From: Candidatus Omnitrophota bacterium
Lineage (GTDB): Bacteria; Omnitrophota; Gorgyraeia; 2-01-FULL-45-10
Assembly: GCA_003142795.1 (NCBI GenBank)
Contig: PLNN01000024.1
Span: 1,078-65,077 of the forward strand
Reading direction: 5' to 3'
Length of the DNA stretch: 64,000 nucleotides
The position numbers and the translations under genes are program-made. Positions within the stretch are counted from its first letter, which is position 1; each line of letters starts with the position of its first letter. The notes below the pieces were generated by a model. That model had not been told where the DNA came from. It ran no database searches and saw only the letters and a program-made list of their open reading frames with translations. Below, in pieces: positions 1,818-61,070 of this stretch.

Positions 1818-2090
1818 ATGGCGGAGATTAAAGTCGAAAAGTTAGGGCGCGATGCGCTTGAGAAGATGGGTGTGTTCAAGTGGCCGGTATGGACTAAGGA
1901 AGTGTCGAAATTCGATTGGACCTATGACTCTGTCGAGCGCTGCTATTTTCTCGAGGGACAGGTTACGGTGAGTTGCAAAGGAGGCAAGGCGGTAAGTTTT
2001 GGGAAGGGTGATTTTGTGACGTTTCCGAATGGGCTAAGCTGTGTTTGGGATGTCAAGCAGGCGGTGAGGAAGCACTATCAGTTTGAGTAG
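1818..2090 (+). CDS. small cupin-fold protein (DUF861-like)
   Basis: 90 aa. The pattern GDFVTFPNGLSCVWDV resembles single-domain cupins. Confidence 0.55.
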   Translation: MAEIKVEKLGRDALEKMGVFKWPVWTKEVSKFDWTYDSVERCYFLEGQVTVSCKGGKAVSFGKGDFVTFPNGLSCVWDVKQAVRKHYQFE

Positions 2091-2098
2091 CGAAAATA

Positions 2099-2143
2099 GG
2101 GACTGTCCCCGGACTGGGGCTTGACTAAGGTGGGGACTGTCCC
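2099..2143. repeat. REP-like palindrome doublet (GGGACTGTCCC x2)
   Basis: gggactgtcccc...ggggactgtccc sits directly 3' of the cupin gene. The same GGGGAC/GTCCCC core recurs across the island. Confidence 0.4.
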
Positions 2144-2311
2144 AATTTTCGCTCGTGGTAGAATGTGCTGCGTCGAGTGGTTCGCAGGGACGCTCAATTT
2201 TGGACCATGCCAAAATTTTCGCTCGAAAAACTTGCTCGGACGCTGCCTCGCAAGTTTTCACGCCCTGCTCACCACATCGCCACATCACATTCCTGACGTA
2301 GCGAAAAATTT
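2144..2311. repeat. MITE-like / sRNA-like repeated element, copy A (terminal inverted repeat AATTTTCGC...GCGAAAAATT)
   Basis: About 90 % identical to 22161-22336. Termini are inverted repeats and the interior is strongly palindromic. It has no ORF. Confidence 0.5.
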
Positions 2312-2349
2312 AGCCATTATTGTTCGAGCGAGCAATTATTTAACTCTTG

Positions 2350-2380
2350 CGAGTCGAGAACTTCTCGACTCGGGATTTTT
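2350..2380 (+). terminator. Rho-independent terminator just downstream of MITE-like copy A
   Basis: CGAGTCGAG aactt CTCGACTCG perfect 9-bp stem followed by GGATTTTT. Confidence 0.5.
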
Positions 2381-2471
2381 CGTCAACGGGGCGGTGGCTG
2401 GTTCACTGACCGAGTGAGGCTGGTGCGTGATTGAATAGAGTGAGACGAACATTTTAAATAACGGAGGGGAC

Positions 2472-3152
2472 ATGAAAAATAAATTAATCGTATTATCTAT
2501 TTTATTAGGTTTACTGTTTCCCTCAACTCGAAATGCATATTCAGAAACTGCTCCAAGGCCTGCCTCCGACATAACAGTAATTTCGTTCAAGATCGAACAG
2601 CAGAAAGATACCTACCCTTATCCTGGCCCAATAGGGAGTAGCATAGATTCTATGGGCAACATTTATCGTAATAATGCCTATTTATGCGTTGATTTAAAAA
2701 ATAATAGCAATGCTTGGGAGTATGCCAACGTACCGTTAAGGATTTATTATTACGATAAAAATGATTTCAAGTTTTCAGAAGTGATAGTTAAAACTCCAAA
2801 TGGTGAAAAGATATCTTTGGGAGAAGAAAAGAAATTTAGAATATTTCTCGAAGGTTCAGAGTATCCCTATGAGCAAACAGTTGGTTTTAAATACAAGGTG
2901 ATCGTATCGCCTGAGGATATAAGGACAACCAGTGATTGGAGAAGCCTAAAGGTTGGTATGACCCAAGATGAAGTCCGCAAAATTTTGGGTGAACCCACGC
3001 ACATAGATGAGCCTGCTTCTGATAGCCCAACCTGGACATATTATGCAGGAGACTTGATCCCTTTATCAGGAAGCAGGGTATATTTTGGAACCATTGGGCC
3101 ATTATGGAATCAAAAGAAGTTGGTAGTAAAAAAATGGGAAGAGCCCCTGTAA
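2472..3152 (+). CDS. secreted protein with a C-terminal BamE/SmpA-OmlA-like domain
   Basis: Signal peptide MKNKLIVLSILLGLLFPSTRNAYS. The C-terminus has LKVGMTQDEVRKILGEP, typical of BamE-like domains. Its stop overlaps the start of the next gene (TAAATG), and the region is AT-rich. Confidence 0.45.
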   Translation: MKNKLIVLSILLGLLFPSTRNAYSETAPRPASDITVISFKIEQQKDTYPYPGPIGSSIDSMGNIYRNNAYLCVDLKNNSNAWEYANVPLRIYYYDKNDFKFSEVIVKTPNGEKISLGEEKKFRIFLEGSEYPYEQTVGFKYKVIVSPEDIRTTSDWRSLKVGMTQDEVRKILGEPTHIDEPASDSPTWTYYAGDLIPLSGSRVYFGTIGPLWNQKKLVVKKWEEPL

Positions 3153-3944
3153 ATGAATGTCAAATCAGTAAAGATGGAATTTAATACCATAAACGATGCA
3201 CGAAATTTAATTAAGGAGTTAGAATCTGAATCAAAAAAAGTTTTATTTAGAGGCCATTCTAATGCGGAATGGAAGCTACTGCCCTCGGTAGGAAGAAGTA
3301 ATAAGACCGTAATTGTTGAAAATAAGGAACTTGTTGAATTTAAGGCTACAGTCTTAGCGATATCAGAAAAGTATAAAGGCAACAAATATTTCCAAGAGTT
3401 TGGTTCGTCAGATTTTAGTTTATTTGCATTAGCGCAACATTACGAATTATTCCCTACACGGTTTCTTGATTGGACAGATCATGTATTAATTGCTCTGTTT
3501 TTCGCTAGTAATAATCATCCATCGTTAGATGGTTGTATTTGGATGTTTTCCGTGCCAGGTAATTCTAACCCCTGTTGGCGGATATCCGAAAGAAATGACG
3601 ACCCTTTAGCGTATGAGCAGTTAAAAATATTTTTTGTGCCATTCTTTATAGACGAATGGAGAGAGAAAATAGAAAATAAAACCTTTGGCAATCGGCGTCC
3701 ACAAGTACAGCGGTCCATAATGACCATCCATCCTAAAATAGAGAACAATTATAAGAGTTTGAACGAATTAATTGCTGGGGAAATGCTTTCTCAAATTAAA
3801 ATTCCAGCTCAAAGCAAGGAGAGTATTTTAAAAATTCTGTCCGAGGAATACTTCATTAATGCGGACACCATTTTAAATGGGAAAACTGCTCTAGACATAA
3901 AAAGTGAACAGGCTTGGAAAGATATCTTGCAGAAAAATATATGA
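3153..3944 (+). CDS. FRG-domain protein
   Basis: The N-terminal VLFRGHSNAEWKLLPSVGRS matches the FRG motif (F-R-G ... W.L.PS..R). 263 aa, translationally coupled to the upstream gene. Confidence 0.5.
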   Translation: MNVKSVKMEFNTINDARNLIKELESESKKVLFRGHSNAEWKLLPSVGRSNKTVIVENKELVEFKATVLAISEKYKGNKYFQEFGSSDFSLFALAQHYELFPTRFLDWTDHVLIALFFASNNHPSLDGCIWMFSVPGNSNPCWRISERNDDPLAYEQLKIFFVPFFIDEWREKIENKTFGNRRPQVQRSIMTIHPKIENNYKSLNELIAGEMLSQIKIPAQSKESILKILSEEYFINADTILNGKTALDIKSEQAWKDILQKNI

Positions 3945-3956
3945 ATTTGTAATAAC

Positions 3957-4011
3957 GGGGACGGTCCAGAAAGGGCCACCCCATGGGAGGGTACCAAAAG
4001 GACCGTCCCCA
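3957..4011. repeat. REP-like long hairpin (GGGGACGGTCC ... GGACCGTCCCC)
   Basis: 11-bp perfect inverted repeat with a loop of about 32 nt, lying between the FRG gene and the nuclease-domain gene. Confidence 0.45.
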
Positions 4012-4066
4012 GAAATTCATTAAAACGTGAAATAAAATATAAACCGAATAATTGGAAAACTAAACA

Positions 4067-5311
4067 ATGATAAATTCACAGGATGAACTATTGTTTCACG
4101 AAATAGATTTTCCAAATTTGCTCGGAGAAATGAAGAGAGGCCTTAATACAGAAATCTCGTCATTAAGTCGTGATCGAATGCTTAAAGAATCCGATGATGA
4201 TCTTTACGCTTTCTTTGTTGAAAAATACTCTCCCGTAGTCGCTGTATTACATGATGAACAAAAACATGTACTCCCTCCAAAGGATATTCGCATAGATGTT
4301 AGAGGTCGTTTTGATTACGCAATAGAGGATGAGAGGGCGCCTGCATTCGTCAAAGGAACTTTAATTACAATTGTAATTCCGTTTGAAGGCGACAGCCAAT
4401 ATTTTAAATTCCGGCCTTCAGCATATTCATTGTCCGGCGTTCGTGGTGATATTATTGATAATGAAGTGCATTTGAAATATTCGGGCCTCCCTCAAGACAT
4501 GAGTACAGAAGCTATAAAAACTAAAATGGAGCACGATATCAAACAGATAAAGGAATATTTAACACGATTGTCGCAAGAAACCGAAACTCATAATAAATAT
4601 GTAAAAGATGAAACACGAAAACTTCTTGATGCAAGAAGAAATGCGGTTCTGAAAGATGAATCATTAGTTGAGAGCCTCGGAATACCCATTAAGCGGCGGC
4701 CCGATGATAATTCAACTTTTACTATTCCAGTTGTAAGGAGGATGCCTGCGATTGAACAACATCACGATAAAACTCCTAAGCCAAGAGAGCCTATTTTACA
4801 AGAAGTAGAATATAACCACATTTTAGACTTGATTTCACGCATGGCTATTGTTATGGAGCGTAGCCCAAAAGCTTTTTACGAAATGGATGAGGAATCGATA
4901 AGATGGCAATTTTTAATTCCACTAAATAGCCATTATGAAGGCATGGCCTCAGGAGAAACGTTTAATTATTCTGGCAAAACAGATATACTTATTCGTTTTG
5001 AGGGCAAAAATGTGTTTATTGCCGAATGTAAAATTTGGCAAGGTGCAAAGGTATTTCTCGATACTATTGACCAAATTTTGAAATATACTAGCTGGCGCGA
5101 TACCAAAACTGCGATTATCTTGTTTAATAAAAATGAAAACTTTACATCAGTTCTTGCACAGATCCCGAATCTAGTTAAAACGCACCCATCTTTTGTATCT
5201 GATTTAGGAAAGCGAGACGAGACAATTTTTAAATTTATCCTTCATAACCCCGAGGATAAAGACAGAAAATTAATCATGACGGTTTTGGCATTTAACATTC
5301 CAAAAAAATAA
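4067..5311 (+). CDS. hypothetical protein with a C-terminal PD-(D/E)xK nuclease-like domain (Shedu/Mrr-like architecture; N-terminus unknown)
   Basis: 414 aa. The C-terminal motif GKTDILIRFEGKNVFIAECKIW reads as D-x(n)-E-x-K, the catalytic signature of the PD-(D/E)xK nuclease fold. AT-rich. Confidence 0.45.
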   Translation: MINSQDELLFHEIDFPNLLGEMKRGLNTEISSLSRDRMLKESDDDLYAFFVEKYSPVVAVLHDEQKHVLPPKDIRIDVRGRFDYAIEDERAPAFVKGTLITIVIPFEGDSQYFKFRPSAYSLSGVRGDIIDNEVHLKYSGLPQDMSTEAIKTKMEHDIKQIKEYLTRLSQETETHNKYVKDETRKLLDARRNAVLKDESLVESLGIPIKRRPDDNSTFTIPVVRRMPAIEQHHDKTPKPREPILQEVEYNHILDLISRMAIVMERSPKAFYEMDEESIRWQFLIPLNSHYEGMASGETFNYSGKTDILIRFEGKNVFIAECKIWQGAKVFLDTIDQILKYTSWRDTKTAIILFNKNENFTSVLAQIPNLVKTHPSFVSDLGKRDETIFKFILHNPEDKDRKLIMTVLAFNIPKK

Positions 5312-5401
5312 GGGATAACGGTGCTAGATTAATTGTGGGGACGGGGATGGAGGCGATCCCAGACCTGTTCCGGGACAAAAGATATAGGAGAGATAATGTA
5401 A

Positions 5402-5863
5402 ATGTGTCCTACGACTGGCTTGTTGCAATTGGTTCTCACTGGATTATTCCTCTTTCTCGTATTCCAGGTTATAAAGACGTATAATGCCGCTAAAACGAAT
5501 TTTGGGACACTTTCAGGATTGTTATCAACGCCGAAGACTAAATGGGGATATTTGTCTATCAGGCTTGAGGGGACTTATAAGGGCAGAAAGGCGGCATTGA
5601 ACTATTGGTTGGTGGGAGTTGAAGGGGGTTATCAAATAGACTTTTACATCGAACCGATAGGCGATTTAAAGAAACAAAAATTTATTTTTTTGAGTTATCC
5701 GAAGCCGACAGAAAACACTGTTTTAAGAGGAAAAAAGCTTCTCTATTCAGATCCCTATTTCCGCAATAGGCCGCATGAGATATATCCTGTTCAGAAATTT
5801 ACAGATATATTGGAAACGTTGACCCAGGCAGCCGGTATAGTGGAAAGTCAGGGGAGAAAATAG
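5402..5863 (+). CDS. hypothetical protein with an N-terminal transmembrane helix
   Basis: 153 aa with hydrophobic N-terminus LLQLVLTGLFLFLVF. No recognisable domain. Confidence 0.35.
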   Translation: MCPTTGLLQLVLTGLFLFLVFQVIKTYNAAKTNFGTLSGLLSTPKTKWGYLSIRLEGTYKGRKAALNYWLVGVEGGYQIDFYIEPIGDLKKQKFIFLSYPKPTENTVLRGKKLLYSDPYFRNRPHEIYPVQKFTDILETLTQAAGIVESQGRK

Positions 5864-5887
5864 CGAGTTTATGGAATTTGGAATTCA

Positions 5888-5900
5888 GGGGACGTTCCCC
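5888..5900. repeat. REP-like palindrome GGGGACGTTCCCC (left flank of the transposase)
   Basis: This is the exact inverted copy of GGGGAACGTCCCC at 6647-6659 on the other side of the Y1 transposase gene. Confidence 0.5.
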
Positions 5901-6047
5901 AAGGCGACAGACTGTTAGATTGTAACGCATTGTAAACAAAGATGTTGTAACTGCGTTAAGAAATATTTTAAAATAATTGCAATAATTTTCCTCTTTTTAT
6001 CGTCTATATATATGAGAAGCATATAGACTGAAAAAGGAGGATTTTTT

Positions 6048-6635
6048 ATGTCAAGACAAGCCCGCTTATTGGAAGATGGCGGCTATTATCACATCATTAC
6101 CCGTGGTAATGATCGCAAGCGGATATTCCGATCTGACCCTGATTTCATCTATTTTTTAAAACTTGTCAAAGAAGCCCTGGGAAAGAAGAGTATTAATATT
6201 CATCACTATTGCCTGATGAATAATCATCTGCATTTTCTGATAAGCGTTATTGATTCAAGGCTAGCGCCGAAGTTCTTCCAAAACATATTTCAGCGATATG
6301 CCTATTATTTCCGTAAACGTTACCGGCATGTAGGCTATCTATTTCAAAATAGGTATAAAAGCTATCCGATCGAAAAGGATGGCTACTTATTGGAATGCGG
6401 CCGATATATCGAAAGAAACCCTTTAAGGGCAGGCATTGTTAAAGATGCGGTGGATTATCGATGGTCCAGTTATTTACATTATGCCTGTGGCAAAAAAGAT
6501 GATATAATATTATCAAATCCTGCGTACATAGAATTATCACAGGATGATGATGAGCGTAAGCGTTTATATAGGGAATACATTCTTCAGGAAAGACCTTACG
6601 AACATCTTGTAGATAAAGGACTTAGGGTCGGGTAG
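6048..6635 (+). CDS. HUH/Y1 transposase, IS200-like / REP-associated tyrosine transposase (RAYT)-like
   Basis: 195 aa. N-terminal YHIITRGNDR, the HUH motif NNHLHFLI, the Tyr motif GYLFQNRYKSY, and the C-terminal NPLRAGIV...YRWSSY typical of IS200-like/RAYT proteins. Confidence 0.75.
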   Translation: MSRQARLLEDGGYYHIITRGNDRKRIFRSDPDFIYFLKLVKEALGKKSINIHHYCLMNNHLHFLISVIDSRLAPKFFQNIFQRYAYYFRKRYRHVGYLFQNRYKSYPIEKDGYLLECGRYIERNPLRAGIVKDAVDYRWSSYLHYACGKKDDIILSNPAYIELSQDDDERKRLYREYILQERPYEHLVDKGLRVG

Positions 6636-6638
6636 TGT

Positions 6639-6659
6639 GTCCCCGCGGGGAACGTCCCC
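6639..6659. repeat. REP-like palindrome GTCCCCGCGGGGAACGTCCCC (right flank of the transposase)
   Basis: Contains GGGGAACGTCCCC, the reverse complement of the left-flank copy, plus a nested CCCCGCGGGG palindrome. Confidence 0.5.
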
Positions 6660-6686
6660 GATAGTGAATAACTAACTAGGAGAATT

Positions 6687-6938
6687 ATGCGTAAATTTGT
6701 TATGGTTTTAGCGCTGATCGTGGGACTGTCTATTACGGTTTACGCCGCCGATGAGAAGAAAGTTAAAGGCATAGAGGTGGTGCCGGAAACAGTAACCGCC
6801 GTGGTTGATAAGACAAACGCATTATTGTCGGGCAAGCTGGAATTTACGATGACGGAAGATAGGTCCAAATATAATAAAAAATATACAGTGAACGCCCTCG
6901 GAAATAAAGTCCCGGCTTCAACTGTTACGAAAAATTGA
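6687..6938 (+). CDS. small secreted protein
   Basis: Signal peptide MRKFVMVLALIVGLSITVYAADEK, with an AGGAG ribosome-binding site. Confidence 0.4.
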   Translation: MRKFVMVLALIVGLSITVYAADEKKVKGIEVVPETVTAVVDKTNALLSGKLEFTMTEDRSKYNKKYTVNALGNKVPASTVTKN

Positions 6939-7704: not shown

Positions 7705-7935
7705 ATGGCTACAAAGATGCCGAGACTCAATGTGGTGCTTGAACCACCGATGTATTTTGCCATTGTCAGTATGGCCAAAAAGGAAGGGATATCTCTTTCC
7801 CTGAAAGCCCGTGATCTCATACGGGAAGCGTTGGATTTCTGCGAAGATAGCTTTTGGACTAAAGAAGCGAACAAAAGAGAAAGAACATTCAGCCGCAAAA
7901 GAGCGCTTTCCCATAAAAAGGTTTGGGGTAAGTGA
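7705..7935 (+). CDS. type II antitoxin, ribbon-helix-helix-like
   Basis: The ATG at ~7705 is preceded by AGGAGG. MATKMPRLNVVLEPPMYFAIVSMAKKEGISL has a beta-strand then helices. Its stop overlaps the toxin's start codon. Confidence 0.55.
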   Translation: MATKMPRLNVVLEPPMYFAIVSMAKKEGISLSLKARDLIREALDFCEDSFWTKEANKRERTFSRKRALSHKKVWGK

Positions 7936-8210
7936 TGAAGTATAGTTTGATCTATCATCCCGACGTATACGGTGAAGATATTAAGAATATTCCCGCCAAC
8001 ATAAAAAAGCGTATACGCAATGCTATCGAAACGCGCCTTCAGAACGATCCAATACTTTACGGTAAACCTTTGCGTCAAAGCCTCAAAGGGCATAGGCGGC
8101 TTCGCGTCGGCGATTGGCGTGTCATTTATAGAGTAGAAGCACATGAAGTTGTAATTCTCAGGATAGGGCACCGGAAAGAGATCTATAACAAGCCTCCCCG
8201 AAGATTCTGA
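7935..8210 (+). CDS. relE: type II toxin, RelE/ParE family
   Basis: LRVGDWRVIYRVEAHEVVILRIGHRKEIY matches the RelE/ParE C-terminal motif. About 91 aa, overlapping the antitoxin stop. Confidence 0.75.
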   Translation: MKYSLIYHPDVYGEDIKNIPANIKKRIRNAIETRLQNDPILYGKPLRQSLKGHRRLRVGDWRVIYRVEAHEVVILRIGHRKEIYNKPPRRF

Positions 8211-21008: not shown

Positions 21009-22162
21009 AGAAAATATTTTATACAGTTTTGGCGCTCACATTACTCAGTTCTTTTGTTTTGGGCCCTCTGGTTTGGGCGGATGGTTCGGATACCGTGATG
21101 AGGGTGCTGATAATAGATGATAAGCCGTCCGTTTTTCTGGCGCTGAAAGGAAAATACAAAATATCCGAGATAAATTCGGGCAGGATTTTGATGGAGGGCC
21201 CGTACCTTGACGCCCAGATCGCCGGAACAAAAACAGGTCTTCGTATCGGAAATAAAGAGTCAAACGTCTACGGCTTCAAGGTCAAAGTATTACGCGATTC
21301 GAATATTTATGTCGATGGAAGAAGATTTAGGGGCGATATCGATATCATAAGAAAAGATAATTTGAAACTTGAGGTGATAAATTACATAGGTCTGGATGAT
21401 TATCTTTACGGAGTATTATATCATGAGGTTTCGCATCGCTGGCCCCTGGAAGTTTTAAAAGCACAGGCGATCGCGGCAAGGACGTTCGCCCTGTATCAGG
21501 CTAAACAGAATAAATCTCAACCCTACGATCTCCGGAGCGACATATATTCCCAGGTTTACGGAGGAAGAACGTCGGAGAAGTGGTCGACTACGCATGCCGT
21601 CGATGTTACAAGGGGGAGGGTATTGGCGTATAACGGGGACATCCTGCCGGCATATTATCACGCTACATGCGCCGGTTTTACCGAAGATGCCGTAAATCTC
21701 TGGAATGTGGACCTGCCGCCCCTAAAAGGCGTGAGCTGTAATTTTTGCGTGTATTCTCCGCATTATAAGTGGACCAAAAATATCGCTCTCTGGGACCTGG
21801 CGCGTAAGTTAAAAGACGCTAATTATAAAATAGATAAAATAGCGTCTGTGAATATTTTGTCAAAGAATAGGTCCGGGAGGGTGGACAAACTGGAAATAAA
21901 AGATGATACCGGGGTGGCCATAGTGCTGACCGGGAAAGATTTCAGGCAGATGATGGGCCCAAATGAGCTGCGCAGCACTAAGTTCGATTCTTCGATAAAA
22001 GGGAATAATCTGGTCCTTTCCGGTTTCGGCTGGGGACATGGCGTAGGCATGTGCCAGTGGGGGGCCTTCGAGATGGCCAAGCAGGGCAAAAAGGCGGAAG
22101 AGATCCTCCAGTATTACTATCCCGGCGCTGAGATCACAACTATCGATAAGGTGAAGCAGTAA
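21005..22162 (+). CDS. SpoIID/LytB-domain protein
   Basis: Signal peptide MKKIFYTVLALTLLSS. The C-terminal motifs AQAIAARTFALYQ and AYYHATCAG are characteristic of SpoIID/LytB. Confidence 0.75.
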   Translation: MKKIFYTVLALTLLSSFVLGPLVWADGSDTVMRVLIIDDKPSVFLALKGKYKISEINSGRILMEGPYLDAQIAGTKTGLRIGNKESNVYGFKVKVLRDSNIYVDGRRFRGDIDIIRKDNLKLEVINYIGLDDYLYGVLYHEVSHRWPLEVLKAQAIAARTFALYQAKQNKSQPYDLRSDIYSQVYGGRTSEKWSTTHAVDVTRGRVLAYNGDILPAYYHATCAGFTEDAVNLWNVDLPPLKGVSCNFCVYSPHYKWTKNIALWDLARKLKDANYKIDKIASVNILSKNRSGRVDKLEIKDDTGVAIVLTGKDFRQMMGPNELRSTKFDSSIKGNNLVLSGFGWGHGVGMCQWGAFEMAKQGKKAEEILQYYYPGAEITTIDKVKQ

Positions 22163-22336
22163 AATTTTTCGATGCCCGTGGTAGAATGTGCTGTGTCGAG
22201 TGGTTCGCAGGGACGCTCAATTTTGGACCATGCCAAAATTTTCGCTCGGAAAACTTGCGCGAACGCTGTCGCGCAAGTTTTAACGCCTGAGCTCACCACA
22301 TCGCCACATCACATTCCTGGGGATGTGAAAAATTTT
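22161..22336. repeat. MITE-like / sRNA-like repeated element, copy B
   Basis: About 90 % identical to 2144-2311. Starts on the TAA stop of the SpoIID-like gene (TAAAATTTTTCG) and ends GTGAAAAATTTT. Confidence 0.5.
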
Positions 22337-22368
22337 CATTTTGCAAAGACAAGGTCAGCTAAGAAGAT

Positions 22369-22938
22369 ATGAAGCAGAGACACATAAAAAAAGACGAGAT
22401 TTTTCGAATTTATCAAGCAACAGGCATTAATTATTTACGTTTTTTAATTCCAACTGTAATAACTATTTGCTTGTTAAGTAGTTACATTTATATAGGCCAA
22501 GGAATAAAAAAAGATTTTTTTACAACTTTTCTTATAAGTACACTTTTGCTTTTTGGATATGGCACGTATAAAACTTTGGTTTGCCCGCAACCTCTTATTT
22601 GGGGTACAAAACATGGCTTGTGGTTAAATATTGTTCCGTTTAACAAAGGTTATTTCGTTCCCTGGGTAGATCTTTATTCGGCTGAGTCTGATCAAATAGT
22701 GCATCGATATAGTAAGTATGATTTACTTGCGAAGTCTAGTCCGCCCCTAAAAATATTAGGAACAATGCAAGACGACCGTTTATTAAAGATACAGTTAGCA
22801 TTAAACAGTATGTCGGGATTGCCGATTTTCCGCAAAAATGTTATTATGTGCGACAAAGAAACTCTATGGTTTCGTGTCGCAGGAGATATTATTAATCACG
22901 TGAACGAAATTAAGAGGTATAGAGATTTAGCGAGATAG
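22369..22938 (+). CDS. hypothetical membrane protein on a very AT-rich, probably foreign segment
   Basis: 189 aa with 3 hydrophobic helices. Roughly one-third GC against about 48 % for the neighbours. Confidence 0.4.
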   Translation: MKQRHIKKDEIFRIYQATGINYLRFLIPTVITICLLSSYIYIGQGIKKDFFTTFLISTLLLFGYGTYKTLVCPQPLIWGTKHGLWLNIVPFNKGYFVPWVDLYSAESDQIVHRYSKYDLLAKSSPPLKILGTMQDDRLLKIQLALNSMSGLPIFRKNVIMCDKETLWFRVAGDIINHVNEIKRYRDLAR

Positions 22939-23338
22939 GTATATAGCAGCGCCTCGTATAAAAATATTTCTAACCTGGTTAGATTTGGCAGGTTAGTAGA
23001 CCTAATCCGAAGTTATGTGAGCACAACGAAAATTTTAGGCTGACGAATTTTAATTAAGACACGCGCGTGGCTTGACGCAGATTGTGTCTGGGGTTGATAA
23101 AAGTATCAAGATATTCATGTAGCTGTTAAATGGCCGACTGGCCATGGGGGTTGAGCCGAATAGATTTTGCGACCATATGCTCTACCACTAAACTATATAT
23201 AGAAGAGTTACCATCACAGTAAAGTATAAAAGTTTTAATTAAGTAAAGACTAAAAATTCATGAGAGCAAAATCCGGCGAAGCCCCCTGGCCTGGCGGCCA
23301 TTTATGGGAGAAGGCGAAAAATTTCAAAATGAGAGACC

Positions 23339-24364
23339 ATGAAACTATCCGAATTTGATTATAACCTACCCAAAGAACTGATCGCCCAGTATCCAGTCGA
23401 AAAGCGCGAGAAGTGCAGGCTGATGGTGCTTGACAGGAAGGCGGGCGCATCTTCTCACAAGACCTTCGAGGATATTACAGCCCATTTCAACAGCGGCGAT
23501 CTGTTGGTGCTGAATAATACTAAAGTTATCCCTGCAAGACTTTTCGGTAAGCGCCAGACGGGCGGTAAGGTCGAATTATTTTTGCTGGAGAGTAAAGGCC
23601 AGATTTGCGAAGCGCTCGTCAGGCCTTCGGGACGTCTTAAAGAAGGCGAGAGGATAACGCTTGAATCCGGAGATGAGGCAGAGATCCTGGGCTGGGGCGC
23701 TGTAGGAAGGATGGTTAAATTCAGCCGTCCTTTGAATGGAATAATGGAAACTGCCGGGCACGTTCCGCTTCCTCCTTACATAGACAGGGCCGACGAAGAA
23801 TGCGACAGGCATGATTATCAGACCGTCTATGCCGAGCGCGAGGGCGCGACGGCAAGTCCGACAGCGGGCTTGCATTTTACCAAAGAACTATTGGATAGGG
23901 TTACGGGTAAAGGGATAAGGATCGCGTATGTGACGCTGCATACGAATTACGGGACGTTTGCGCCCGTGAAGACGGACGATGTCGAGGGGCATGTGATGCA
24001 TAAGGAATATTTTGAGCTCCCGGAAGAGACAAAGAAGGCGGTCCTGGAAACGAAGAAGAGCGGCGGGAAAGTTTTTGCGGTAGGGACTACCACAACGCGC
24101 GTCCTGGAATATTGCGCCAGGTCCGATGAATATTACGGTTTAAGGATGAAGGCGCTGTGCGGTTATACCGATATGTTCATTTATCCCGGGTATAAATTCG
24201 CGGTAGTGGACCGCCTCATAACGAATTTTCACCTTCCGAAGTCGACACTGATGCTCCTGGTCAGCGCGTTTGCCGGGAAAGACCTCATATTTAAGGCCTA
24301 CGCGGAAGCAGTCAAAGACCGCTACAGGTTCTTCAGCTATGGCGATTCCATGCTGATAGTGTAA
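23339..24364 (+). CDS. queA: S-adenosylmethionine:tRNA ribosyltransferase-isomerase QueA
   Basis: MKLSEFDYNLPKELIAQYP is the canonical QueA N-terminus. 341 aa. Confidence 0.9.
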   Translation: MKLSEFDYNLPKELIAQYPVEKREKCRLMVLDRKAGASSHKTFEDITAHFNSGDLLVLNNTKVIPARLFGKRQTGGKVELFLLESKGQICEALVRPSGRLKEGERITLESGDEAEILGWGAVGRMVKFSRPLNGIMETAGHVPLPPYIDRADEECDRHDYQTVYAEREGATASPTAGLHFTKELLDRVTGKGIRIAYVTLHTNYGTFAPVKTDDVEGHVMHKEYFELPEETKKAVLETKKSGGKVFAVGTTTTRVLEYCARSDEYYGLRMKALCGYTDMFIYPGYKFAVVDRLITNFHLPKSTLMLLVSAFAGKDLIFKAYAEAVKDRYRFFSYGDSMLIV

Positions 24365-24544
24365 AATTTTTCGTTTTAAGCCGATAGGGCAGATTGACCG
24401 GCAGGGGCCCTTTCGGCTAATTTTGTGGCTCGCTGCAATTGGTATGTACAAGATTTGTATCATTCAATTGCGACGCTCGCTCACAAAATTTAACGCCTCA
24501 AGGGCACCCTGCCGGTATCTGCCCCTGACGTATCGAAAAATTTT
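24363..24544. repeat. MITE-like element, diverged copy C (perfect 11-bp terminal inverted repeat AAAATTTTTCG / CGAAAAATTTT)
   Basis: Begins on the queA TAA stop. The interior is a long imperfect palindrome. It shares its termini and the TTTAACGCCTCA segment with copies A and B. Confidence 0.4.
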
Positions 24545-36744: not shown

Positions 36745-39700
36745 TATATCCATTAAGAACCCGGTTTTTTCCTGGATGCTTATGGCAGCCCTTATAATAT
36801 TCGGCGCTATCAGCTATACCCGTTTGGGCGTAGGCCAGCTGCCTGACGTGGATTTTCCGATCGTGTCCATAACCCTTACCTGGGAAGGCGCCGCTCCGGA
36901 AGTAATGGAGACGGACGTCGTCGATATAGTGGAAGACTCCCTCATGAGCATCCAGGGCGTGAAGGAGGTATCAAGTTCCATAAGGCAGGGAATGGCAACA
37001 ATAACCGTTGAATTCGATCTGAATAAAAATATCGATGTCGCAGTCCAGGATGTGCAGTCAAAGATAGACCAGGCGCAGAGATCGCTTCCGAAAGATCTCG
37101 ATCCTGCCATAGTTACAAAAGTGAATCCGGAAGACAATCCTATCCTTATGCTGAGCGTGTCGTCTTCCACGATGCCGATCCGCGACATAATGACTTATGT
37201 CCAGGACCATCTTAAGGACCAGTTCGCGACCATAAACGGCGTCGGGGACATATTCCTCGGCGGGTTCGTCGACAGGAACCTGAGGATATGGGTCGATGCC
37301 GATAAATTGGAGGCGTATCAATTTACCGTACAGGATGTGATAGACGCCGTTAAGGCAGAGCATGAAGAAGTGCCTGCGGGCCGGATAGAGACACCGTCCA
37401 AAGAGTTTAACGTAAGGGTCATGGGCGAGGCCGCGACCCCTAAGGAGTTCGAGAATCTGCTCCTTCCAAAAAGGTCCGGCTTGCCCGTATTTAAGCCTAT
37501 ATATCTGAAAGAAGTGGCGACGATAGAAGACGGGCTTGCCGACGTCAGGCGCATCGCGCGTTCAAATAAACAACAGACGGTCGCGTTAGGCATCCGCAAA
37601 CAACGCGGGGCGAACGAGGTCGAGGTATCGCATAAAGTATTGAAGAAGCTGGAAGAGATAAAAAAATTCAAACCGAAGGACATAGATATAGGTATTCGTT
37701 ACAATCGGACCAAATTCAGCGAAGATTCTATCCATGAATTGACATTTACCCTTATTTTATCGGCTATAGTAACGTCTCTTGTCTGCTGGCTCTTCCTGGG
37801 ATCCTGGAGCGCTACGCTTAATATATTGCTCGCGATCCCGACATCGGTGCTCGGGACGTTCATAGTCATTTATTTCTTAGGTTTTACGCTCAACACATTT
37901 ACCGTGCTGGGGCTTTCCCTTGCCATAGGTATAGTTGTCGATGACGCGATAATGGTGCTTGAGAATATCGTGCGTTACAGGGAAAAGGGAGTTGATAAAG
38001 TCGAGGCCGCGCGCCGCGGCGCCAGGCAGATCACGTTCGCGGCCATTGCCGCCACCATTGCCCTGATAGCAATATTCCTGCCGGTAGCGTTCATGTACGG
38101 CATTATCGGAAAATTTTTCTTTCAGTATGGGGTTACTATATCGGTTGCGGTTGCGATCTCATTGCTGGAAGCACTTACGCTGGCGCCAATGAGATGCTCG
38201 CAATTCCTTGAGGTTGGGAGCCGCCATACCTTCATCGGAAAAGCTGTAGAAGAAGGATTCAAGGCTTTGGCCGTTACATACCATTCGTTCCTTGATAAGG
38301 CGTTAAATAAAAGGGCAATTATAGTCATCGTTGCGCTCATCTTTTTTGTAGCCTCGATCTTTTTACTGAAGCCGATCCGCAAAGAAATGCTTCCGTCTCA
38401 GGATATGAGCATGTTGATGTGCCGTCTTCAGACACCCGTGGGCTCGTCGATCGTGCTTACAGACGAGTGTTTCAAAAAGGCCGAAGATTATATTTCTTCG
38501 AGGCCCGAGATAGACGGATATTTTTCATTGATAGGCGGCTTCGGCGGCGGCGAAGTGAATTCCGGCATGATATTCTTAACGCTGAAAGAGCCTAATAAGA
38601 GGCCTGTAGTTCCCCCTAATAAGCGGCCTCTTACGCAAAGCGACATGATGGTGCTCCTGCGCAAAGAGCTAAATAAGATACCGGACGTGAAGGCAACGAT
38701 ACAGGACCTGTCGCTTTCCGGTTTTTCGGCCCAGAGAGGATTCCCGATAGAATTTTCTGTCAGAGGGCCGGAGTGGGAAAAATTATCGAAATACGCGACC
38801 GACATCAGGCTGGCTATGGAAAAATCCAATCTGATGATAGACGTTGACACGGACTTCCTTGCCAAGATCCCGGAAATTCGCGTCGAACCGGATAGACAGA
38901 AGGCCAATGACAGGGGCGTCAGCATCGATGCCATAGGCGGCGCCATAAACGCTCTCATAGGCGGAGAGAGAATAGGTAAATATACAAAAGGAGGCCGGCG
39001 CTATGATGTGCGCGTTCGGCTTGTGCCGTCTCAACGGACTGAAACAGAAGACATACAACGGTTGTGGGTGTGGAATAATAGGAATGAGCTCGTCCAGCTT
39101 AAGAACGTAATAACCATAACAGAGAAGCCCACTCCTTTGACTATAACACGGCGTAATAGGGAAAGGGCAATAACGATATTTGCGAACGTCGTCCCGGGAA
39201 AATCCCAGGCCGACGCGCTGAAAGAAGTAAACCGCATAGCTAAAAGTATCCTTCCTGAAGGGTACAAAACAGTATTTTCCGGGAGCACTCAGACTGCGAT
39301 CGAATCCCTTATAAGCCTTTTGATAGCGTTCGTTCTCGGGATACTGATCTCATATATGGTGCTTGCTTCGCAATTTAACAGCTACCTTCATCCTATATCG
39401 GTCTTGGTCGCTATATTTTTTGGTATATCCGGAGCGCTCCTTACTTTATGGGTATTTAATCAGTCTTTAAATATCTACAGCGCCATAGGCATAATACTTC
39501 TGATGGGTATCGTTAAAAAGAATTCCATACTTCTTGTCGACTTTACAAACCAGCAGCGAGAGCTGGGCCTTGAGGCCAAACAGGCGCTTTTAATAGCATG
39601 CCCGATCAGACTTCGGCCTATATTGATGACGTCGGTCGCAACGATCGCGGCTGCTGTTCCCCCGGCATTGGCAATAGGGCCCGGGGCCGAAACGCGCATA

Positions 39701-61042: not shown

Positions 61043-61070
61043 TGTAGGGGAGGTTTAAACCTCCCCTACA
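61043..61070. promoter_or_regulatory. perfect 13-bp palindrome TGTAGGGGAGGTTT|AAACCTCCCCTACA between acsC and acsV
   Basis: Perfect dyad centred on TTTAAA. Either a stem-loop (terminator or processing site; no T-run follows) or a dimeric-regulator operator. Confidence 0.4.

Follow-up and report, generated by a model that had tools for sequence, protein, structure and literature searches.

Probable non-autonomous mobile palindromic repeats at stop codons in operons of Candidatus Omnitrophota

The stretch of Candidatus Omnitrophota DNA analysed here (64 kb, referred to as the window) carries three copies of a non-coding element of about 175 bp, all at the positions given in a preliminary description, and every long ORF called around them lies on the + strand. 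Copy A (2141..2312, +) starts 50 nt past the stop codon of a cupin gene (2088-2090). Copy B (22161..22336, +) and copy C (24363..24544, +) start inside a TAA stop codon, as had been noted: the first bases of B are the AA of the spoIID stop (22160-22162), and the left end of C is inside the queA stop, its right end being 16 nt upstream of the tgt start. The identity of about 90% previously reported for A and B amounts to 90.1% over 162 nt (A 2144-2311 versus B 22174-22335), and C is indeed a diverged relative, since BLAST against A and B matches only its termini (20 nt, 95%). Terminal inverted repeats of the form (T)AAAATTTTTCG...CGAAAAATTTT(A) characterise the family. In C they are perfect over 12 nt (TAAAATTTTTCG / CGAAAAATTTTA), in B there is one mismatch (TGAAAAATTTT), and in A the 5' terminus is degenerate (CCCAATTTTCG), the 3' terminus being CGAAAAATTTA. 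A and B are type-1 elements, with covariance model scores of 143 and 152 bits, respectively. C represents a C-type, with homologues in three other loci (L081, L165, and L088), and is only weakly recognised by the covariance model made from A/B-type copies (32 bits, E 5e-5). A fourth type-1 or C-type copy was not found in the window by BLAST, covariance model, or subfamily queries; a candidate at 38107-38310, in which neither a rod nor inverted repeats are present and which is unmatched by the same three approaches, was rejected. The Logan contig L002 breaks off 43 nt into copy C.

Several other features lie close to the elements. Between the cupin stop codon and copy A, a palindromic REP-like doublet (2089..2153) contains GGGACTGTCCCC twice and is organised as AGCGAAAAT-AGGGACTGTCCCC ... 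GGGGACTGTCCC-AATTTTCGCT, with 22-nt arms. It overlaps the left terminus of copy A and belongs to a separate repeat family; the segment 2091-2143, which falls in the interval of the preliminary description, is a different repeat and not part of the element. The motif GGGGACNNNCCCC gave 8 strand-specific matches and 4 palindromic loci, versus 1.9 expected. Downstream of copy A and outside the repeat, a terminator-like hairpin (2350..2380, +) is present as described before, with a 10-bp stem (6 GC) followed by a T-tail. The intrinsic-terminator scan called only this hairpin (2350-2372) and the REP palindromes, and none of the elements.

Copy A adjoins the left end of an AT-rich island (2401..6700, +; GC 0.37-0.38 from 2401 on), which lies directly 3' of it and contains the genes of a BamE-domain protein (2472-3152), an FRG protein (PADLOC PDC-S15; 3153-3944), PDC-S54 (4067-5311), a 153-aa ORF, and a RAYT-like Y1 transposase (6048-6635). 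The latter is flanked by inverted palindromes of the same kind as the 2089-2153 doublet (GGGGACGTTCCCC at 5888-5900 and GGGGAACGTCCCC at 6647-6659). Next to copy B, between spoIID and queA, lies an AT-rich orphan ORF of 189 aa (ORF189; 22369..22938, +; GC about 0.36), which has no Pfam domain and no homologue other than itself and is absent in relatives. It is part of an insert of 1165 bp (22161-23325), likewise absent from relatives, whose bounds are the left terminus of B and a solo right terminus, CGAAAAATTTC (23315-23325, +), 13 nt before the queA start. The insert also includes a hairpin (23128-23310) that represents a fifth repeat class and may belong to the same superfamily. A tRNA-like stretch on the minus strand (around 23150-23200) was unsupported by ARAGORN or Rfam and was discarded, as was a third AT-rich patch (41.6-42.4 kb), which corresponds to the divergent promoter region before polA and is not an island.

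We scanned 185,579 species genomes for the exact termini pattern. The scan returned 15 mutually homologous matches, all in eight Omnitrophota MAGs, and one diverged match. The remaining matches to the pattern (Selenomonadaceae, Quinella, and others; 62 in all) are unrelated by BLAST to the element and mostly also among themselves; on inspection, they resemble coding sequence or palindromes of other kinds, and we consider them chance or unrelated matches. The covariance model R1 added further copies; in L037, their density reaches 4-5 per 8 kb. In total, 28 type-1 copies were collected. Two more copies lie in L163, a contig from the sample of the window that probably derives from the same genome; the window and L163 together comprise six superfamily members in 85 kb. 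All the genomes are MAGs or metagenome contigs, and homologues of A and B were seen only in Candidatus Omnitrophota MAGs.

The members of the superfamily range in length from about 40 to 470 bp, with 165-235 bp as the typical size. Inverted termini of 11-12 nt are common to at least four body types that are unrelated in sequence: type 1 (A and B), the C-type (C), and types 2, 3, and 4 in relatives. AAAATTTTTCG and CGAAAAATTTT hardly vary between copies or between body types; this terminus motif served to ascertain the first 15 copies, and those retrieved by the covariance model or BLAST carry it too. The length of the A/T runs is type-specific (A4/T4 in type 1, A3/T3 in type 3), so that a TAAAA/TTTT target preference, as initially suggested, is not demonstrable. 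In agreement with the earlier observation, no conserved ORF is present in the body, and a small protein gene was rejected, the ATG-led internal frame being broken in most copies. A known RNA family was rejected as well: Rfam gave no match over the whole window at gathering score and, at E up to 5, nothing meaningful over B and C; the type-1 and type-3 copies of L163 and the C-type and type-3 copies of L081 gave nothing meaningful either, and ARAGORN found no tRNA. Two viral-contig scans yielded one match, taken as chance, and none, and a phage origin was dismissed. A link between Omnitrophota or Omnitrophica and MITE or REP repeats was not found in the literature. A, B, and C belong to a previously undescribed superfamily which is, as far as sampled, confined to Candidatus Omnitrophota.

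The same gene junctions are filled in some genomes and empty in others. The existence of only these three copies, with no empty sites, had been named in the preliminary description as a refutation; there are many copies, and unoccupied sites are common at precisely the junctions held by B and C. The queA-tgt junction is empty (1-30 nt, e.g. TAATATG) in at least 13 relatives. Where it is filled, it contains a C-type element (window), a type-1 and a type-2 element (L091), a type-1-like element (L093), or a type-2 element in either orientation (L087, L097, L098, and L099). Likewise, 10 relatives have spoIID and queA overlapping (ATGA) or spaced by no more than 33 nt, and in 10 others the junction is filled, the length of the SpoIID C-terminus being equal at filled and empty sites. 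The xerC-kdtA and ilvC-leuA junctions show the same polymorphism.

Regarding the position of the elements, the stop codon of the upstream sense ORF is overlapped by 16 of the 28 type-1 copies, and 23 of them are located at most 12 nt from this stop. About 27 of the 28 are in sense orientation. Type-2 copies occur in both orientations (about 6:4), as does the C-type. The flanks are T...A in about 75% of the copies; these bases are palindromic and could equally be an extension of the inverted repeat, and in the copies examined a TA duplication is indistinguishable from a palindromic T...A terminus. No fixed 5' flank was seen beyond the T. Local GC skew is confounded by the coding strand and was abandoned as a means to part the transcriptional from the replicative strand. 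Copies at different sites of the same genome are on average 81% identical (up to 91%), versus 70% for copies at the same site in different genomes and 68% for unrelated pairs.

The multiple copies, the inverted termini, and the insertion polymorphism support the MITE-like reading of the preliminary description. As the insertion polymorphism is accompanied by within-genome homogenisation and by unrelated bodies with common termini, we favour a mobile repeat over a vertically inherited RNA gene, and the 3'-UTR sRNA put forward earlier as an alternative is not required. With a probability of roughly 0.7, these elements are a superfamily of short, non-coding, non-autonomous mobile palindromic repeats similar to ERIC, Correia, and REPIN elements. 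An enzyme acting in trans would copy or move the element into junctions between genes that run the same way, in most cases right at the stop codon. The leading AA of the element, together with the upstream T, would re-create the TAA stop, leaving the upstream protein unchanged. The inserted element would then join the DNA of the operon and presumably its transcript. The observed positions could result from insertion into the TA of the stop codon combined with selection against disturbance of the tightly packed flanking genes.

The body of the elements is strongly structured, as expected from its earlier description as palindromic: copy B has a fold z-score of -6.2, and copy C folds as a rod (-88.6 kcal/mol, z = -10.2). 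Type 1 adopts a Y-shaped rod composed of a terminal helix P1 and of helices P2-P4, ending in a three-way junction that bears two hairpins with the conserved loops ACCATG and ACSCTGCC. RNAalifold predicted 46 pairs, 21 of which show compensatory changes. In the covariation analysis, which had been proposed as a check, 34 of the 46 pairs change on both sides, a value reached by 0 of 500 shuffles. Among 24 sequences, 95% of the cells are paired, versus 83% for shuffles and 35-53% for slid partners. The hairpin loops of type 1 stay constant while their stems get replaced. G-U outnumber A-C combinations by 26 to 9, 13 of which come from one column, so these counts are too weak for a strand assignment. 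As the termini are conserved in sequence and the body in pairing, with covariation, a single-stranded folded form appears to matter for propagation. This implies either ssDNA, during transposition or recombination, or RNA.

Such a fold, together with the near-exclusive sense orientation, could also be that of an intercistronic or 3'-UTR RNA module kept for the benefit of the operon, its spread being secondary. This module could block 3' exonucleases, provide a processing site for RNase III/E, insulate the translation of uncoupled genes from each other, or attenuate read-through. Its position exactly at the stop would place the terminating ribosome on P1, the same junctions are occupied in several genomes, and ERIC and Correia repeats alter mRNA stability once co-transcribed (PMC2229807). 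The sharing of occupied junctions could also mean that the elements are old and functional, that they are inherited vertically, and that gene conversion homogenises them. Nevertheless, close relatives manage without the element at these junctions, unrelated bodies interchange at one site, and types 2 and C occur in both orientations. The within-genome homogenisation fits amplification better than a site-specific function, and no Rfam family matches. Moreover, P1 is A/U-rich, and the element itself is therefore not a canonical intrinsic terminator. We consider this explanation unlikely, and we argue that the conserved fold and the strong strand bias are real, yet that they do not define a new class of RNA gene.

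If the elements are mobile repeats, the enzyme that moves them would act in trans. A search of about 1.6 Mb of loci revealed no autonomous partner, in which a transposase gene would lie between the same termini. Where two termini are spaced by 0.5-3 kb, the sequence between them consists of host genes or AT-rich cargo ORFs, with no transposase among the enclosed ORFs examined. The only tyrosine recombinases near elements are of the XerC/XerD type. With a plain double-stranded cut-and-paste MITE, the strand bias of about 27:1 and the covarying stems around conserved loops would not be expected. A variant of the mobile-repeat reading, which contrasts with the double-stranded inverted-repeat MITE model, is that an HUH (RAYT or IS200-like) transposase or a tyrosine recombinase moves or recombines the elements in the form of folded single strands, as in REPINs, IS200/IS605 derivatives, integron attC sites, and the attP site of CTX phage. 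The conservation of structure rather than sequence around conserved loops and termini is the design of REPINs. The strand bias would arise from strand-specific insertion relative to replication in genomes whose genes almost all point the same way. The window encodes a RAYT-like Y1 transposase, and the Pfam-annotated gene tables for the loci L001 and L160-L165 list no DDE-type transposase. However, the GGGGACGTTCCCC palindromes, and not the termini of the element, flank the RAYT-like gene, whose product scores below the NCBIfam cut-off (63.8 versus 80) and has no homologue in the approximately 1.6 Mb of element-bearing loci. With a different flanking palindrome and no co-occurrence with the element, this RAYT was rejected as the mobiliser. 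In addition, perfect inverted termini of 11-12 nt are foreign to IS200/IS605 ends, type-2 copies are found in both orientations, and the strand signal of the G-U and A-C counts is weak. A single-stranded mechanism is a tentative refinement, possible but somewhat doubtful.

Inserted AT-rich genes lie next to several copies, and models of known or candidate phage-defence proteins match some of these genes. In the window, each of the two real AT-rich islands begins right after a type-1 copy. In L091, the order is spoIID, type 1, AbiGi, type 3, queA; in L163, it is xerC, type 1, AAA_15 (an AriA/GajA-like ATPase), type 3, kdtA. A type-1 copy is followed by a TIR-domain protein in L039 and by a membrane ORF and a C-type element in L165, while in L088 a C-type element, ORF148, and a type-3 element succeed each other. 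Cargo-free element pairs exist in L081 and L082, and a xerC or xerD-like gene precedes 5 of the 16 exact-termini copies. These recurrent arrangements could point to dispersed attC/dif-like recombination sites that capture small accessory (defence) cassettes into housekeeping operons, with the architecture [type 1 or C-type]-cargo-[type 3 or C-type]. Yet cargo is absent from most copies, an integron integrase and an attC core (RYYYAAC / GTTRRRY) are both missing, ORF189 is an orphan, and no identical cassette was seen at two sites. The xerC gene belongs to a conserved dprA-topA-xerC-kdtA operon whose xerC-kdtA junction is empty in L161 and L162, so its link with the elements may just reflect a permissive junction. 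Cargo and elements may also pile up independently wherever insertions are tolerated. Capture of cassettes is thus very unlikely to be what the elements are for.

A broader version would combine both ideas. Rather than ordinary double-stranded MITEs, the elements would be folded single-strand substrates of an HUH or tyrosine-recombinase system for recombination or transposition, possibly with the host XerC/D, that targets stop codons of housekeeping operons; element pairs with type 1 or C-type at the left end and type 3 at the right end would serve to capture and exchange small phage-defence cassettes. We regard this combination as improbable; if true, it would represent a chromosome-wide integron-like system in Omnitrophota.

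As mobile repeats, these elements would be the first interspersed repeat family described for Omnitrophota, an uncultivated phylum with compact genomes, and they explain many long intergenic gaps inside otherwise tightly coupled operons. They probably cause contig breaks as well, such as the end of L002 inside copy C. More generally, they suggest how a mobile repeat can colonise near-gapless genomes, by landing on a stop codon and rebuilding it from its own terminus. In MAGs, the edges of the elements could serve as markers for the entry of AT-rich genes into housekeeping operons and for small defence islets; among the genes marked in this way are homologues of established or candidate defence proteins (AbiGi, a GajA/AriA-like ATPase, PDC-S15, and PDC-S54). 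If the strand bias and the covariation do reflect a single-stranded mechanism, a hitherto undescribed enzyme-substrate pair would be at work.

Integron attC sites are imperfect palindromes in which the structure and the short termini are conserved, whereas the middle differs in both sequence and length. Their place is immediately 3' of an ORF, in many cases in contact with the stop codon, and they share one orientation; promoterless accessory genes are associated with them. The Omnitrophota elements resemble them in their palindromic architecture, their position 3' of ORFs, their single orientation, and the accessory genes. In contrast, they lack the R'' RYYYAAC / R' GTTRRRY core, intI, and an array beside attI, and they follow housekeeping genes all over the chromosome. 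Composite units flanked by MITEs, such as class 1 integrons between identical MITEs in Acinetobacter, also show accessory genes bracketed by two elements (PMC10969869), whereas the brackets in Omnitrophota usually differ in body type and the mobility of the unit is putative. Elements derived from IS200/IS605 differ by the absence of terminal inverted repeats, by subterminal hairpins, and by insertion 3' of a fixed tetra- or pentanucleotide.

REPINs possess conserved inverted ends and a hairpin with compensatory changes (PMC3116915). The inverted conserved ends, the compensatory hairpin middle, the within-genome variant families, and the non-autonomous, extragenic nature are common to both, as an architectural resemblance only. 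REPINs are doublets of 20-40-nt REPs, usually with a GTAG or CGTC tag, and flank their own RAYT gene; the 175-bp elements have no such tag and have A/T-rich termini, and the RAYT-like gene of the window is flanked by GGGGACGTTCCCC. Bacterial MITEs, generally, are shorter than 200 bp, with terminal inverted repeats, 5'-TA-3' and AT-rich ends, and a rod fold, and are co-transcribed (PMC2229807; PMC10969869). Among them, RUP of Streptococcus pneumoniae, which is mobilised by IS630-Spn1 and inserts at TA, is similarly small, inverted-repeat, and TA-flanked (PMC2229807). Insertion at a TA dinucleotide, as in RUP, would explain why TAA and TAG stops are hit and then rebuilt. For RUP, a parent IS with matching inverted repeats is known, whereas no IS630-like or other parent was found for the Omnitrophota elements.

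ERIC, also known as IRU (RU-1), and Correia, also known as NEMIS, are likewise non-coding elements of 100-200 bp with T...A-ended inverted repeats and a rod formed by pairing of the 5' and 3' parts. They are found between co-transcribed genes, at sites filled or empty in relatives, and have orientation-dependent effects (PMC2229807). For ERIC, too, the transposase and any target duplication are still to be assigned. The Omnitrophota elements share no sequence similarity with them and belong to another phylum. They are further distinguished by a single 11-12-nt terminus carried on at least four unrelated bodies, by the covarying three-way junction with conserved loops of type 1, and, for over half of the copies, by insertion precisely at the stop codon.

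The three copies first proposed for the window hold up: over 162 nt, A (2144-2311) shares 90.1% identity with B (22174-22335), close to the 90% originally estimated, and C (24363-24544), already considered diverged with shared ends, matches A and B by BLAST at the termini only. The inverted termini are present as described, with a perfect 12-nt pair in C (TAAAATTTTTCG / CGAAAAATTTTA). The TAA stop codons of spoIID and queA do contain the starts of B and C, respectively, and A starts 50 nt after the cupin stop. Of the interval 2091-2380 given in the preliminary description, only the part occupied by A belongs to the element; 2089-2153 is a separate palindromic doublet. The terminator reported after A is real as a terminator-like hairpin (2350-2372), but lies outside the repeat. 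When folded, C forms a long rod (-88.6 kcal/mol, z = -10.2), and the fold of B has a z of -6.2. No further copy of type 1 (A and B) or C-type was found in the window by BLAST, covariance model or other-subfamily queries.

The idea that only these three copies exist is contradicted by a scan of 185,579 species, each represented by one genome, with the pattern AAAATTTTTCG-N140-170-CGAAAAATTTT. Among its 78 matches, 15, for which perfect termini were the selection criterion, form one homologous cluster with A and B (identity 72-85%), all from eight Candidatus Omnitrophota MAGs; another Omnitrophota match, in locus L035 (L numbers designate the genome or metagenome loci compared), is a diverged relative. 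The other 62 showed no BLAST similarity to the element and were rejected as family members. They comprise coding-like Selenomonadaceae stretches and two unrelated kinds of repeat, namely GGGGCGAAAAATTTTTCGCCCC(TAC) palindrome arrays in several phyla (L004, L011, L053, L022 and L063; Bacteroidota, cyanobacteria and others) and near-perfect 180-nt Collinsella palindromes (L010, L018 and L044), with the same outer AAAATTTTTCGG...CCGAAAAATTTT. R1, a covariance model built from 17 type-1 copies, also recovered copies whose termini are imperfect, as many as 4-5 in the 8 kb of L037, and copies in metagenome loci fetched via queA and xerC. The comparison sequences are all MAG or metagenome contigs. 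In sample ERZ27254250, contig L001 is identical to the window in the queA region, and L163 contains two type-1 copies (88-91% identity) with P5/P6 variants peculiar to A and B, from which we infer that L163 and the window belong to the same genome. Scans of viral contigs yielded one match, taken to be chance, ARAGORN called nothing on the elements, and no literature linking Omnitrophota with MITE or REP repeats was found.

The type-1 fold comprises paired termini (P1), followed by pairing of AATGTGCTGTGTC with GCCACATCACATT (P2), GTGGT with ACCAC (P3) and CAGGG(A)CG with CGCCCTG (P4), and a three-way junction bearing hairpins P5 (loop ACCATG) and P6 (loop ACSCTGCC). RNAalifold detected compensatory change in 21 of the 46 predicted pairs. 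The covariation analysis, suggested beforehand as a check, favours the fold: across 24 sequences, two-sided change was observed in 34/46 pairs, a value reached by none of 500 shuffles, and pairing cells amounted to 95%, versus 83% for shuffled sequences and 35-53% for slid partners. The alignment was fitted to the model, which biases these figures towards structure, yet the effect is still large. Whole stems are swapped while the loops are kept (P5 and P6 in L076, P2/P3 in L030 and L070), and extra stems can be inserted, e.g. in L037:3290-3512. The body was correctly described as devoid of ORFs, the internal ATG-led frame being broken in most copies. Helix G-U and A-C counts stand at 26:9, with 13 from a single column, and do not decide the folding strand.

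Identical termini also bound bodies that are otherwise unrelated or distantly related. C-type homologues occur in L081, L088 and L165; type 2 is a hairpin with a covarying stem and a constant loop, CATGCCTAATG; type 4 was seen in L084. Type 3 (AAATTTTTCGGGTG ... GGACCCGAAAAATTT; 40 to about 470 nt) always lies immediately upstream of the queA or kdtA ribosome-binding site (L163:12856-13145, L081:9500-9975, L088:5250-5460, L091:9774-9989 and L082:9945-9990). Its interior of 20 to about 450 nt exhibits the recurring motifs CATAGATACGCGC and GATTGTAAACCC and has no match in Rfam; type 3 may be a separate, larger structured element. The A/T run differs in length between types (A4/T4 in type 1, A3/T3 in type 3) and is therefore part of the element, not a duplicated target.

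Of the 28 type-1 copies, 16 share bases with the stop codon, almost always TAA, of the sense ORF preceding them, and 23 lie within 12 nt of it. About 27/28 have the sense orientation, the antisense copy being L070:6685-6861 and the doubtful one L036. Type 2 occurs in both orientations (about 6:4), as does C-type, with one reversed copy among four. Ordinary housekeeping genes lie upstream (spoIID, queA, ilvC, dapB, argG, dnaK, ribH, hemN-like, xerC, xerD-like and a dGTPase-like HD-domain phosphohydrolase gene). A xerC (L039:4451-5323, L073:6597-7469, L035:708-1586) or xerD-like gene (L066:3776-4663, L055:4940-5827) directly precedes 5 of the 16 Omnitrophota elements with exact termini, a striking enrichment which may nevertheless reflect only a permissive junction.

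Comparison of filled and empty sites indicates that the elements are insertions. The queA-tgt gap is 1-30 nt in at least 13 relatives (TAATATG, TGATATG and similar), and after in silico removal of C the window flanks align across this junction. In other relatives, the occupant at the queA stop codon is different: L091 carries types 1 and 2, L093 a type-1-like element, and L087, L097, L098 and L099 type 2, in one or the other orientation. Hairpins of tandem 6-7-nt units and their complements, e.g. TATAAGC...GCTTATA or CAGCTGA..., are an alternative filling of queA-tgt (L079:1111-1175, L081:11093-11185, L083:1536-1610, L096:2010-2083, L100:1450-1600). The spoIID and queA genes overlap (ATGA) or lie at most 33 nt apart in 10 relatives whereas the junction is filled in 10 others, including the window, with the terminal residue of SpoIID at an identical position in both. 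The same pattern is observed at ilvC-leuA and at xerC-kdtA (empty in L161 and L162; filled in L160, L163 and L164). Copies within a genome share 81% identity on average, and up to 91%, whereas same-site copies across genomes share 70%, no more than unrelated pairs (68%). This argues against simple vertical descent and for either concerted evolution or a recent amplification of genome-specific master copies, which would have hit a few permissive junctions repeatedly.

The window has two genuine AT-rich islands, and each starts directly 3' of a type-1 copy. The island after A (2401-6700; GC 0.37-0.38 versus about 0.47 elsewhere) encodes a BamE-domain protein, an FRG-domain protein matching PADLOC PDC-S15 (4e-33), a 414-aa protein with a full-length PDC-S54 match (8e-136), a 153-aa ORF and a RAYT-like Y1 transposase; the FRG-domain protein and the PDC-S54 match are candidate phage-defence genes. 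A ParE toxin gene lies beyond the island (7932-8210). B is followed by an orphan 189-aa ORF and then 390 nt; these close with a solo right terminus, located 13 nt upstream of queA. Comparable layouts are found elsewhere: xerC, type 1, an AriA/GajA-like AAA_15 ATPase, type 3 and kdtA, as well as ilvC, type 1, an 82-aa ORF and leuA, in L163; spoIID, type 1, AbiGi, type 3 and queA in L091; type 1 and a TIR-domain protein in L039; type 1, a membrane ORF and C-type in L165; C-type, a 148-aa ORF and type 3 in L088. Element pairs without cargo occur in L081 and L082. Either the elements mobilise the cargo, or both merely gather where insertions are tolerated. Several cargo ORFs exhibit, after their stop codon, a palindromic motif TCTAACCTGGTTAGA or the related TCTAACCTAAT...ATTAGGTTAG (window 22970-22985, L091 about 9730, L087 about 1210-1260, L102 about 9800, L163:12822-12850), which may be a terminator or a site travelling with the cargo.

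The RAYT-like gene (6048-6635; IS200-like; Pfam PF01797 at 3e-14, and NCBIfam REP_Tyr_transpos at 63.8 bits, short of the cut-off of 80) was considered as mobiliser and rejected, since it goes with another palindrome and has no counterpart in the other loci. On either side of it are the inverted palindromes GGGGACGTTCCCC (5888-5900) and GGGGAACGTCCCC (6647-6659). The doublet between the cupin stop and A, consisting of GGGACTGTCCCC twice (2098-2110, 2132-2144), is of the same kind. Together, the gene and its palindromes look like a second, independent REP/REPIN-type system. A perfect 26-nt palindrome, GTAGGGGAGGTTTAAACCTCCCCTAC, resembling a GTAG-tagged REP, lies between two + strand genes (61044-61069) and recurs identically inside the L081 type-3 element. 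A fifth repeat class is a long hairpin at 23128-23310 (AAATGGCCGACTGGCCATGGGGGTTGAGCCG ... CGGCGAAGCCCCCTGGCCTGGCGGCCATTT), with relatives in L102 and L077; a stretch in its loop resembling a tRNA 5' half (about 23150-23200, minus strand) was discarded, ARAGORN and Rfam being silent.

The evidence best supports a non-autonomous mobile repeat that is mobilised in trans; among the paired termini whose enclosed ORFs were checked, none enclosed a transposase. The termini, invariant across bodies, would be a sequence-specific recognition site, and the body would have to fold, since compensatory changes have preserved its pairing. A location at the stop codon would follow readily from the genome layout, in which genes overlap or lie a few bases apart: only insertion at the stop codon would leave both reading frames intact, the stop being rebuilt from T and the element's AA. 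In the other two frames, the upstream ORF would run into the element, where no early stop is present. A TA preference (TAA/TAG), as in the IS630-mobilised RUP, would sharpen this targeting. A plain double-stranded cut-and-paste element would not be expected to show the strong strand bias of type 1, nor stems that covary around fixed loops. Both features suggest either that the substrate is single-stranded DNA, as it is for REPIN/RAYT, IS200/IS605 or attC, or that selection acts on a co-transcribed RNA, as has been reported for ERIC and Correia. The two are not separated by local skew, which is confounded by the coding strand.

In kind, the element is a bacterial MITE/REPIN-like interspersed palindromic repeat. 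Its size, inverted termini, copy number and filled and empty sites are those of a MITE, as the preliminary description had suggested. In contrast to REPINs, it does not flank the RAYT-like gene; it differs from attC in having neither core sites nor an integrase, and from IS200/605 derivatives in its true inverted termini. Every Rfam family failed as a home for it, no match to the elements being found at any threshold. Its noteworthy features are the one terminus common to several unrelated bodies, the well-supported Y-shaped fold, the insertion precise to the stop codon, which is regenerated, and the recurrence at the edges of small AT-rich islets of accessory genes, some of which match defence-protein models.
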